Part shown: positions 3,001-6,000 of the stretch, piece after piece
Layout of the letters: each line of letters starts with the position of its first letter
Numbering within the stretch: the stretch's first letter is position 1
Virus record (IMG/VR): IMGVR_UViG_2563366959_000003
Origin: a virus
Lineage: Duplodnaviria; Heunggongvirae; Uroviricota; Caudoviricetes
Length of the DNA stretch: 20,003 nt
Strand: one strand, 5' to 3'
Position numbers: made by a program

Positions 3001-6000
3001 CGTCAACCAGTGAATCGCTTAATGAGGTCGACAAGCGCATCACTAAACTGGATAAAGAAGGCGGTGAAGCGTTTCTGGCGATGTGGTCAAAAAAAGCGGG
3101 AGTTGATGGCATCACTGCGGGGATCGGGATTGTCGCCGGAAAAGACAGTGAAGGCAGGCCTGTAAGTCAGGTTGCAATTTCTGCGTCGCAGTTGTTTGTC
3201 TTTGACCCGAATAATCCGGATAACACAGCCTATCCGTTTGCGGTATCAGGTGGCAAGGTAGTGATCCCGAAAGCGATGATTTATGACGCGGTGATTGAAA
3301 CACTGGTGTCGCGGAAGGTTGTGGCGGATGAGGTAAAAGCCGGGGTAAGTATCACTTCGCCAGTTATCCGGAGTGCCGTTATTCAGAACGGAAACTTTCA
3401 GGTTGATTCTCAGGGTAACCTGAATATTGGAGGCCTTTTCAGTGTTACGTCACAAGGGCAACTGACAATTCGTTACTCTAATCAGAATGTAGGACTGGTG
3501 ATCCGCAATGATAAAATTGAGGTTTATGACCAGAATGGACGACTGGCTGTTCGCATAGGCAGATTACGCTGATCAGGAGGTGAGTATTGGAATACGGTTT
3601 TGCCATTTATAACAGAAATAACGTTAATGTTACGGGCGTGCTGACTCCAGTATTTTTCCTGGACAGATTTACAGCGGAGTCTGGCTCAAAGACGTACACT
3701 AATAAACCCGACGGGAAATCATTGCAGGCTGTATGTTGTTTATTTCCCTGGAATAATGTATTTGCGGATCGGAAAGTACCGAAGATAACCATTAATGACA
3801 ATACGGTGACGTGGTCGAATCTTGAGCAGGGTATGGGATCTTATATTTATACATTCTGGGGATAAGTGTTATGTACGGTTTGAGCATTATGAAGCCGGAT
3901 GGCAGCGTATGGATAAGTCCAGGTTTTACGCCGCAGTGTCTGATCAACAAAGGCACCATACCGGCGACTGAAAAGTCTTTTTTTAAAACATCAATCCCGT
4001 CAGGCAAAAGTTGTTTTTTCTTTATCAGAACAGAGAAGAAGGCCGATGTCATGTACACGCATGAACAGATTGATGGATATCATGCACTAAGGCTTCATGT
4101 AATTGTCAGGGGAACGAACCCTGGTGTTACGACGGTTTATGCTTTCGCGAATATGGTTACTCCACCTTCTGAGTATGGTATCGCCATGTATAACCCGGAC
4201 GGTGAGATGATTTATCATGGCGAAATGATGCTGCTTGACGCGAAGTTAATACCTGTTGATATCAAATTTGAAAAGGACCTTGGATATCCATGCGCAATCA
4301 TGCCTGCACTGGTCGGGTATTATAACTGGAAAAGAACTCCTTATGATCGACCGATTTATACCACATCCACTGGTGCTACAGGAAATAAAATATATTCCTG
4401 TGAGCATTATTCCGGTGGTGCAACATGGGATATTCGAAAGCCGTATATAGATAAGGTCCTGGTTATTAATACATCAGTATATGATTAGTTGAAGCGAGTC
4501 TTTAATATTCATTTAAAATGTCTAAAAAGATGTATTATTAAAAAGTTTAGCGTGTTATCTGAATACAGGATATCTTAAATGAAGAGTATAGCAACACTGG
4601 TTGTGTGTGCAATCTCCGGGATTGCCTGTGTAAATTTATCTGCACATGCAGCAGAAGGAGAGCATACAATTTCTCTGGGGTATGCGCACTTTCAGTTTCC
4701 GGGACTGAAGGATTTTGTAAAGGATGCGACTGCTCATAACAGGGAGACTTTCAGTCATTTCGTCAACAGAAACTACTTTTCTTCATTGGGCGAATATACA
4801 GATGGTCGGGTCAGTGGATATGAAGGCAAGGATAAAAATCCACAGGGCATTAATATCAGGTATCGCTACGAGATAACGGATGATTTTGGCGTTATCACCT
4901 CTTTTACATGGACGCGTTCTCTCACTAACTCACAGACATTTATTGATGTGCAGTCAGCCGATCATACCAGGAAGATTAAGAATCCGGCAGCTTCTGCCAG
5001 AACGGATATCAGGGCGAATTACTGGAGTCTGTTAGCGGGGCCTTCATGGCGGGTTAATCAGTACATGAGTTTATATGCGATGGCAGGGATGGGCGTTGCT
5101 AAAGTTAGCGCTGACCTGAAAATTAAGGACAATATTAACAGTAGTGGCGGATTTTCTGAAAGCAACAGCACGAAAAAAACCTCCCTTGCGTGGGCTGCAG
5201 GTGCACAGTTTAACCTGAATGAGAGTGTTACACTGGATGTGGCTTACGAAGGTTTCGGCTCTGGCGACTGGCGCACGAGTGGCGTTACTGCTGGCATTGG
5301 CCTGAAATTCTGACCTGTATCCGGTAACCGTTTACTACCCGCTGTGATGGCGGGTTTTTTATTGCCCGTACAGGGCAAAAACCGTAAATTATGCGTGGGT
5401 GCCTTTCGGCTGATGGCTGGAGGGTGAACCTGAAGGCCTGATGTGGAAAGGCCCCGAGTCAACTTAACGTTAACCCGAGGCCCTAACACTTCGTACCTTA
5501 AGCAAGTAGAAGGTTAGCGCCTCTCTGTAAAAGGAGTCAAGCGCTATGTCGCAAAAATCGCTTATCACCGTCACAATTTGCATGACGGTTATCTTCACCA
5601 TCTGGATGTTGCACGGTTCACTGTGTGAGTTCCGGCTGAATTTGTGGGGAGCGGAGTTTGCGGCGTTCTTACAGTGTAAGCAGTAGGAAAACCGCGACGG
5701 GGACGAGAGTCCCCGTCAACTGGTTGCTGAGGTTCAGCCGATATGGCACCCGTTTCAGGTGAGAGAATGAACGATAAAATTCTCTGGTATATGCAGCGTG
5801 TTGTGAGAAATTCCCGCAACCCTGAATTTATGAATGAAGTTAAAGACGCCTGCCTTAAAAAGCAGGCGTTTTGTTTTGAGGCACCTGATGGCTTTTTGGT
5901 GCTGCGTTCTGTGCTCAGTGCTGATGGTATCCCTTATGTTCTGGTGTTGCTGGGCGTGTGTACGGGGAGTAACAGCGTTGAGCGTTACCTGCCGGAGGTG

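Follow-up and report, generated by a model that had tools for sequence, protein, structure and literature searches.

A second hok/sok-type cassette, probably functional and lacking a canonical mok start, in Shiga toxin phages of the 933W type

INTRODUCTION

Two described systems are close to the locus considered here: hok/mok/sok (parB) of plasmid R1, which is the paradigm of the families PF01848 and RF01794, and hokW/sokW of the Shiga toxin (Stx) phage Sp5. In R1, mok has to be translated as far as the hok ribosome-binding site or beyond (PMC9841398), and in canonical loci the mok frame starts ~57 nucleotides (nt) 5' of hok. The hokW/sokW module has been tested experimentally, including its dependence on RNase III and Hfq and its aid to phage release (Takada et al. 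2021, PMC8621323). We report here the computational analysis of a further locus of this family, a 46-codon open reading frame (ORF) with its flanking regions, in a 20,003-nt stretch of DNA from a virus of the class Caudoviricetes (IMG/VR record IMGVR_UViG_2563366959_000003). This whole stretch is referred to below as the window, and all coordinates are window positions unless stated otherwise. With a probability that we put at roughly 78%, the locus is a functional type I toxin-antitoxin cassette of the hok/sok type, the second on the phage, in which translation of Hok would be enabled in a non-canonical manner; this reading is based on sequence comparison, RNA folding and analogy with the two systems above.

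The gene itself has been recorded by others. RefSeq PGAP annotates the ORF as WP_000078907.1, "Hok/Gef family protein," and a 2025 phage record annotated with Pharokka labels it "MokW-like host killing." The original 933W GenBank record (1999) has no annotation between lom and L0129 and omits the toxin ORF. Fozo et al. (2010) counted 12 to 14 Hok genes in O157:H7. According to the available text of a preprint by Escalera-Maurer et al. (bioRxiv 10.1101/2025.08.07.668861), the exact peptide was catalogued as Hok 72_1589, in a cluster 72 that also holds 72_1621, and was cloned for a toxicity assay as pAZ3::72_1589 under an arabinose promoter; the label "HAC" given to 72_1589 is read here as designating one of the abundant clusters. 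The same text reports that 42 of 45 constructs were toxic, 72_1589 not being among the three named as non-toxic, and that only coding sequences were considered, with Mok, Sok and the mRNA ends stated as not defined. The second locus is mentioned neither in the paper on hokW/sokW of Sp5 nor in a 2026 paper on Pas small RNAs, and the papers searched yielded no transcriptome data covering the region. The gene is thus already annotated and catalogued, so that its identification is correct without being new.

RESULTS

A 46-codon ORF of the Hok family

The gene that forms the core of the locus is located as follows.

ATG 5546 to TAG 5684-5686, plus strand: hok-family toxin gene encoding 46 amino acids (aa), MSQKSLITVTICMTVIFTIWMLHGSLCEFRLNLWGAEFAAFLQCKQ; assigned from Pfam, PHROG, RefSeq and purifying selection.

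Over the 501 bases compared, 5300 to 5800, the sequence is 100% identical to that of Stx2 phage 933W, VT2-Sakai and many Stx prophages; subtracting 40114 from a 933W coordinate gives the corresponding position in the window. In the 933W-type Stx phage, the ORF lies between lom and L0129, in the same orientation as all the surrounding late genes. Its ribosome-binding site, AAGGAG at 5531-5536, is located 9 nt 5' of the ATG at 5546, a spacing identical to that of the hokW locus.

The peptide matched the Pfam family HOK_GEF (PF01848) over residues 8 to 44 with a score of 33.2 bits (gathering score, 22; E = 4e-8) and PHROG 251 ("MokW-like host killing") with a score of 85.8 bits; HokW from the same window also belongs to PHROG 251. 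As in the Hok/Gef family at large, whose peptides of ~50 aa combine a single hydrophobic helix near the N-terminus with an L-C-E motif and a polar C-terminal domain, a hydrophobic stretch, LITVTICMTVIFTIWML, is followed by SLCEFR and AEFAAFLQCK. In 30 relatives, C27, E28 and the A-F motif show no variation or almost none, and they align with HokW, to which the peptide is 37% identical over the helix and the LCE.R...A.F core; the conserved positions described for Hok are L30, C31 and E32. Since its score with the HokA model lies far under the equivalog cut-off of 89, the peptide represents a separate subfamily rather than a HokA orthologue. Relatives in this subfamily formed 56 clusters in the database search, most of them full-length (46 aa); they originated from E. 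coli, Shigella and Salmonella, and scanning of genomes revealed E. albertii and Citrobacter as further carriers. IMG/VR contributed 311 viral matches, and a copy of the locus is present in 1675 of 5426 complete E. coli genomes.

Substitutions within the gene are of the coding type, with 249, 88 and 375 differences at codon positions 1, 2 and 3, respectively. Nine distinct variants of the coding sequence in the Stx-phage group specify an identical peptide, the differences amounting to up to 8 synonymous and 0 nonsynonymous codon changes. At the protein level, the sequence identifies the ORF as a Hok-family membrane toxin gene. ORFs of 46 codons are common by chance, and the terminator scan flags the hairpin that follows the gene on the minus strand, with CGGTTTTCCT after it; a fortuitous ORF next to an unrelated hairpin, such as the terminator of a neighbouring gene, might therefore be envisaged. 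We give this interpretation practically no credence, because there is no minus-strand gene nearby to terminate, lom has its own terminator (5337-5355 in the terminator scan), and the gene has thousands of conserved copies. The curated Pfam match, the substitution pattern and the collinearity with hokW refute it.

A preliminary description of the window had placed a 46-aa ORF, preceded by AAGGAG, and a perfect 9-bp 3' hairpin at 5546-5717, and these coordinates are exact. It had also reported that the ORF is missing from the ORF track of the window, which is correct, the ORF being shorter than the 60 aa required for inclusion in that list. The Hok/Gef layout that it recognized, and the family profile search that it proposed, are borne out by the Pfam score of 33.2 bits against a cut-off of 22, with which RefSeq PGAP and Pharokka independently agree. 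It had named the lack of both a family match and toxicity as grounds for giving up the assignment; neither applies, given the Pfam match and the absence of 72_1589 from the 3 of 45 constructs that the preprint text names as non-toxic. It had further suggested that the gene could be an addiction element stabilizing an island; the element in question is in fact an Stx phage, and one that already carries the characterized hokW/sokW locus.

An autonomous cassette of ~390 bp

Fifty distinct copies of the locus were aligned (alignment A3, 387 columns). The conserved block begins with a promoter-like TTGCC[CG], 17 nt, TA[AG]ATT (5362-5390) and ends right after GGCACCC (5751). These boundaries are the same whether a copy follows lom in an Stx phage or ogr at the end of a P2-like prophage, or lies within a urease island or on a plasmid. 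Because the boundaries are constant whatever the surroundings, the block at 5362-5751 qualifies as an autonomous cassette. An nhmmer profile built from A3 found the validated hokW locus collinearly over the leader, the coding sequence and the 3' hairpin (E = 1.2e-8).

Several copies are unusual. Copies of the E. coli type are found in contigs assigned to Xanthomonas pisi DSM 18956 (L008), to the metagenome-assembled Planococcaceae genome UBA3378 (L009) and to Vagococcus sp. WN89Y (L011), with peptides 76 to 100% identical; two of these contigs are short (857 and 4211 bp) and that of Vagococcus is 226 kb in length. All three look like enterobacterial contamination, not true hosts. Two diverged copies are arranged head to tail at a prophage contig end in IMG/VR contig 2671181127_000013 (L062; 817-1281 and 1294-1641) and are 79% and 85% identical to the one in the window. 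In one Stx-phage copy (L031; IMG/VR contig 2529293141_000015, 1304-1735), the promoter and the first ~35 nt of the mRNA, including tac, are replaced by unrelated sequence; its 5' end is probably recombined and inactive.

Predicted folding of the sense mRNA

The following elements were assigned to the plus strand.

5362..5390, plus strand: weak sigma-70 promoter of a hok-type mRNA (predicted), with a -35 box TTGCCC (5362-5367), a 17-nt spacer and a -10 box TAAATT (5385-5390).
5397..5412, plus strand: mRNA 5' end and tac-like element, GGGUGCCUUUCGGCUG (predicted from the start of the Rfam match and from the folds).
5477..5523, plus strand: putative Sok-target hairpin, GAGGC-CCUAAC, a variable apex and GGUUAG-C-GCCUC (consensus hairpin of both RNAalifold and Rfam).
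5515..5546, plus strand: predicted hairpin burying the hok ribosome-binding site, with a UAGCGC...GCGCUA closing stem and a CUCU/GGAG inner stem.
5696..5717, plus strand: perfect 9-bp hairpin with a GAGA tetraloop, GACGGGGAC (5696-5704), GAGA, GTCCCCGTC (5709-5717), starting 9 nt past the stop codon.
5735..5751, plus strand: fbi-like element, CAGCCGAUAUGGCACCC, predicted by the minimum-energy fold to pair with the 5' terminus of the mRNA; the conserved part of the cassette ends with it.

The hexamers and spacing of the proposed promoter are kept in unrelated contexts with a different spacer sequence, as in a P2-like prophage copy (L005) that has TTGCCG, 17 nt and TAGATT. The site is not listed by the consensus promoter scan because it scores 8/12, whereas 9/12 is required. 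Downstream, the Rfam model of the hok/sok leader (RF01794) aligned from end to end (model positions 1-157) with 5397-5559 in a permissive local search, with a score of 35.6 bits (E = 2.6e-6).

In the minimum-energy fold of the full-length RNA (5397-5755), two tac/fbi helices join the ends, one between 5397-5403 and 5745-5751 and the other between 5406-5412 and 5735-5741; across relatives, they are 98% and 92% paired. When the RNA is cut at the 3' hairpin, the predicted fold shifts the 5' end to 5443-5455. The RNAalifold consensus contains the same 5' stem and the target hairpin at 5477-5523. The hairpin at 5515-5546, which encloses the ribosome-binding site, forms in 15 of 15 distinct variants (-10.8 to -17.7 kcal/mol) and is present in the full-length fold, not in the truncated fold. 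It and the target hairpin are mutually exclusive, since the 3' arm of the target hairpin overlaps the 5' arm of the other.

The 3' hairpin is 100% paired in the 50 distinct relatives, with compensatory double changes in 4 of its 9 pairs, and it aligns with the 3' hairpin of hokW. As it lacks a subsequent U run, it does not constitute an intrinsic terminator on the plus strand. The analogy with R1 hok predicts that 3' trimming stops at this hairpin, which would hence form the 3' end of the translatable truncated mRNA.

A predicted Sok-like antisense RNA

Two elements were assigned to the minus strand of the leader.

5511..5540, minus strand: Sok-like RNA promoter (predicted), with a -35 box TTGACT (5540 to 5535), an 18-nt spacer and a -10 box TAACCT (5516 to 5511); start at ~5503-5504.
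5504 to 5446, minus strand: Sok-like antisense RNA of ~58 nt (predicted), with a single-stranded 5' tail, a 12-bp hairpin and a CCUUUCC tail.

All 50 distinct relatives possess a TTGnnn box, a 17- to 18-nt spacer and a -10 box of the TAACCT type, the hexamer being TAACCT itself in 49 of the 50 and TAAGCT in the remaining one. TAACCT is also the -10 box that precedes the annotated sokW, at the equivalent place. The consensus scan missed the site because it demands at least 4/6 in the -10 hexamer; at its thresholds, it found no promoter at either of the two proposed sites, both of which thus rest on conservation and on the sokW analogy, not on the scan. To predict the ends of the antisense RNA, the location of the promoter was combined with the coordinates annotated for sokW. 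Its 5' tail would comprise ~22 nt (complement of ~5481-5504) and its 12-bp hairpin would be the complement of 5452-5480.

The antisense hairpin has a predicted free energy of -17.1 kcal/mol, compared to -4.3 kcal/mol on the sense strand, and the antisense strand is the more stable in 15 of 15 distinct variants, by a mean of 9.1 kcal/mol. In these folding models, the difference is the signature of G-U pairs selected in the antisense transcript. The segment at 5484-5503, which forms the antisense tail and the apex of the target hairpin, is the most variable of the cassette (22 variants in 50 sequences; lowest column conservation, 79.6%) and differs even between copies with an identical peptide, as expected of a specificity determinant. 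Cognate duplexes between tail and target were predicted at -36.9 and -43.2 kcal/mol for the two modules of the phage, and the cross pairs with hokW/sokW at -18.6 and -21.0 kcal/mol. Since the cross duplexes are much weaker than the cognate ones, the two modules should not cross-talk.

These data bear on the possibility that the toxin is produced in the absence of a working antisense antidote. The gene would then be a moron for lysis or host takeover, expressed as part of the late transcript, which is Q-antiterminated and traverses lom, and the antisense promoter would be a by-product of mRNA structure. Such a scheme accommodates the co-orientation of the gene with all the late genes around it, the lack of a match in the promoter scan at its thresholds, and the fact that the conserved blocks holding the promoter hexamers, AGGTTAGCGCC and AAGCGCT, double as stems of mRNA hairpins. 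However, the far greater stability of the hairpin on the antisense strand in 15/15 variants points to selection on the antisense transcript rather than on the mRNA, and the -10 hexamer and its position match those of sokW, which has been annotated and studied experimentally. Moreover, late operons are not the sole location of the cassette: it is present at prophage ends, in islands and on plasmids as well, where it would need its own control. We consider a toxin devoid of an antidote to be very improbable.

Absence of a mok start at the canonical position

A single leader ORF was found that might substitute for mok.

5443..5517, plus strand: leader ORF of 24 codons with a GTG start and a Shine-Dalgarno-like GAAGG (5432-5436); only ORF of the leader, putative mok substitute.

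GAGG is conserved at the position of the mok ribosome-binding site, and the triplet found 8 nt further on is CUU in the window copy and AUC, GUC or GUA in relatives. The UAG stop of the leader ORF (5515-5517) is located 28 nt before the hok ATG, at the foot of the 5' arm of the hairpin that encloses the ribosome-binding site, and contributes to its first base pair. A ribosome terminating there could open this hairpin; alternatively, formation of the target hairpin could have this effect. In relatives, ORFs that start from the same conserved region end at -57 to -27 relative to the hok ATG, and neither their frame nor their length is conserved. Eighteen of the 50 copies (including three with a TTG start and one with a GTG start) have an upstream ORF that extends to the hok start or past it, in varying frames and mostly as far as +83 in hok.

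With respect to the leader, the preliminary description fared unevenly. Its proposal that an antisense partner lies in the leader gained computational support from the conserved antisense promoter and the predicted strand-specific hairpin at ~5446-5540. The mok-like overlapping frame that it suggested searching for is not there, on account of the TAA at 5528, the lack of a start at -57 and the lack of a conserved frame.

Several observations weigh against a functional cassette and are gathered here. The window copy has no ATG, GTG or TTG at the canonical mok position (~-57), the in-frame TAA at 5528 rules out an in-frame N-terminal extension of the mokW type, and no overlapping frame is conserved among the 50 aligned copies. 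Because R1 requires translation of mok, native translation of Hok is unproven. The Rfam score of 35.6 bits is below the gathering score of 59, and the peptide falls below the cut-offs of the NCBIfam models HokA (NF007290; 38.4 versus 89) and Hok subfamily (NF007279; 22.7 versus 73). Pairing of tac with fbi has no covariation support because both elements are nearly invariant. Only three U residues follow the antisense hairpin, which makes for a weak terminator, and, for the native locus, the antisense RNA is a prediction, as are the 3' processing and the ends of the transcripts. Finally, the evidence for toxicity comes from the text of the preprint, not from the figure for this construct, and was obtained with a heterologous promoter and ribosome-binding site.

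Some of these points, in particular the missing start codon at the mok position, the overlapping frame that is not conserved, the requirement in R1 for mok translation up to the hok ribosome-binding site and the subthreshold Rfam score, would also be accounted for if the hok locus were silenced or in decay. In that case its mok start would have been lost, Hok would be untranslatable, and the locus would persist as a neutral remnant or as a source of a Sok-like RNA that protects against incoming hok loci. There are precedents among chromosomal hok loci, many of which are known to have become inactive; in E. coli K-12, the hokA leader is cut by IS150. Purifying selection on the gene is nevertheless strong, with 0 nonsynonymous changes among nine DNA variants and a subfamily maintained across E. 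coli, Salmonella and Citrobacter, a pattern that an untranslated gene would not display. In addition, the promoter, tac, fbi, the hairpin enclosing the ribosome-binding site and the 3' hairpin are all intact and conserved, and the peptide is toxic upon expression according to the preprint text. Silencing is the main rival explanation, and we regard it as unlikely.

A functional cassette, our preferred interpretation, may be extended to a broader proposal, in which the subfamily is a working mok-less variant of hok/sok (switched on by the leader ORF or by hairpin competition), phages of the 933W type carry two modules that do not cross-react, and prophage induction could override the antisense control of this one, which is co-oriented with late transcription, thereby adding to lysis or to the timing of Stx release. 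Taken as a whole, this proposal is tentative and, in our view, more doubtful than probable.

Neighboring genes and the canonical hokW/sokW locus

The intrinsic terminator of lom (5337-5361, plus strand), consisting of ACCCGCTGTGATGGCGGGT followed by TTTTTTA, adjoins the -35 box of the cassette. Because the terminator abuts this box, lom and hok are separate transcription units in the lysogen. L0129 (5743-6144, plus strand) has an annotated ATG at 5743 that falls within the conserved 3' element of the cassette (GATATGGCACCC), and its protein aligns with the PHROG 610 profile from residue 9 onward only. For these two reasons, its true start is probably the ATG at 5767, behind AGGTGAGAG. L0134 (8911-17331, plus strand) is a 2806-aa ORF whose RefSeq equivalent is named "LPD38 domain-containing protein," with a frameshift flagged in one genome at least, that of E. 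coli E2863.

The canonical locus of 933W lies in the same window.

18346-18670, minus strand: canonical hokW/mokW/sokW locus of 933W; Rfam sok, 113.5 bits at 18496-18670.
18346-18558, minus strand: mokW, 70-aa ORF.
18346-18501, minus strand: hokW.
18550-18620, plus strand: sokW (annotated).

It is the sole match to an Rfam family above the gathering score in the whole window; the 5362-5751 cassette does not appear among the results of that search.

DISCUSSION

Proposed mechanism

The scheme proposed below for the functional cassette is based, up to the silencing and release of the mRNA, on the sequence, on predicted folds and on parallels with R1 hok/sok and hokW/sokW; for the action of the toxin, it is based on the literature. 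The weak promoter would direct the synthesis of an mRNA of ~355 nt, from 5397 to ~5751-5755, in which tac pairs with fbi and the hok ribosome-binding site is locked in its local hairpin. Slow 3' trimming up to the GAGA-capped hairpin (5696-5717) would remove fbi, so that the 5' end refolds onto 5443-5455; the Sok-target hairpin (5477-5523) could then form, in competition with the hairpin that holds the ribosome-binding site. The antisense RNA of ~58 nt, constitutive and unstable, would pair through its 5' tail with the variable target, leading to silencing and probably to cleavage by RNase III. Upon loss of the antisense RNA, Hok would be translated. Possible causes of this loss are loss of the prophage, shut-off of transcription, or late transcription through the convergent promoter. 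The cassette departs from canonical loci in having no mok start at the expected site. The hairpin that encloses the ribosome-binding site would have to be opened by way of the 24-codon leader ORF, which stops at its base, or by refolding alone. Hok itself would act as a single-pass inner-membrane peptide that is toxic on expression.

From what is known of lambdoid phages, Q-antiterminated late transcription would be expected to run through the toxin gene, against the antisense promoter. Candidate roles for the cassette, all of which are possibilities, include stabilization of the prophage, an aid to lysis as for hokW/sokW, and exclusion of other phages.

Implications

The gene call in itself matters little, the ORF being missing only from the 1999 record of 933W. 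Two points of modest weight may be noted. First, hokW/sokW is not the sole Hok module on Sp5 and 933W. Deletion of hokW alone halved phage release, and this value may understate the share of Hok peptides in lysis and prophage maintenance. Second, the subfamily keeps every element of a hok mRNA except mok, which is essential according to the genetics of R1, and thus offers a convenient natural test of the dispensability of mok.

Comparison with known systems

One close counterpart is hokW/sokW, which is carried by the same phage and has been tested experimentally (PMC8621323); of the two loci, it is the one for which cleavage of the duplex by RNase III, a short half-life of the antisense RNA and killing upon loss of the element have been shown. 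Both loci display the same order of elements, namely, a GGGUGC 5' end, hairpins, GAGG, AGGUUAGC, AAGGAG followed by 9 nt and AUG, a G/C-rich 3' hairpin and a GCACCC 3' element. They also share the antisense -10 box TAACCT, and both peptides belong to PHROG 251. The two loci differ in several respects. Their DNA is ~58% identical. MokW is an in-frame extension of HokW, giving a 70-aa product that starts 57 nt upstream, whereas the 5362-5751 cassette has no mok. The peptide of the cassette has 46 aa and ends in FLQCKQ, whereas HokW has 51 aa and ends in DYESEK. The antisense tails are not cross-complementary, the orientations relative to the late genes are opposite, and the Rfam scores are 35.6 bits for the cassette versus 113.5 bits for hokW/sokW.

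The type I toxin-antitoxin design predicted here for the cassette resembles that of hok/sok of R1 in that the 5' and 3' ends pair, the mRNA has a 3' truncation point, the 5' end refolds onto a box located upstream, the ribosome-binding site of hok is buried, and a short antisense RNA, transcribed convergently, consists of a single-stranded 5' tail and a hairpin. The predicted folds correspond to the switch from tac/fbi to tac/ucb pairing described for R1 (PMC9841398). In contrast to R1, where mok starts at -58, no such start is found here; the cassette is located on a prophage instead of a plasmid, and its peptide is shorter.

HokA of E. coli (NF007290) is the best-scoring named chromosomal Hok (38.4 bits), with an MxQK N-terminus, SLCE and AAFL.CK in common with the peptide. 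In K-12, the hokA leader is cut by IS150 at 32 nt upstream of hokA, so that no comparison of the regulatory regions is possible. With respect to Hok cluster 72, to which the peptide itself belongs, what the present analysis adds is the regulatory anatomy of the cassette, which the available text of the preprint (bioRxiv 10.1101/2025.08.07.668861) does not contain.

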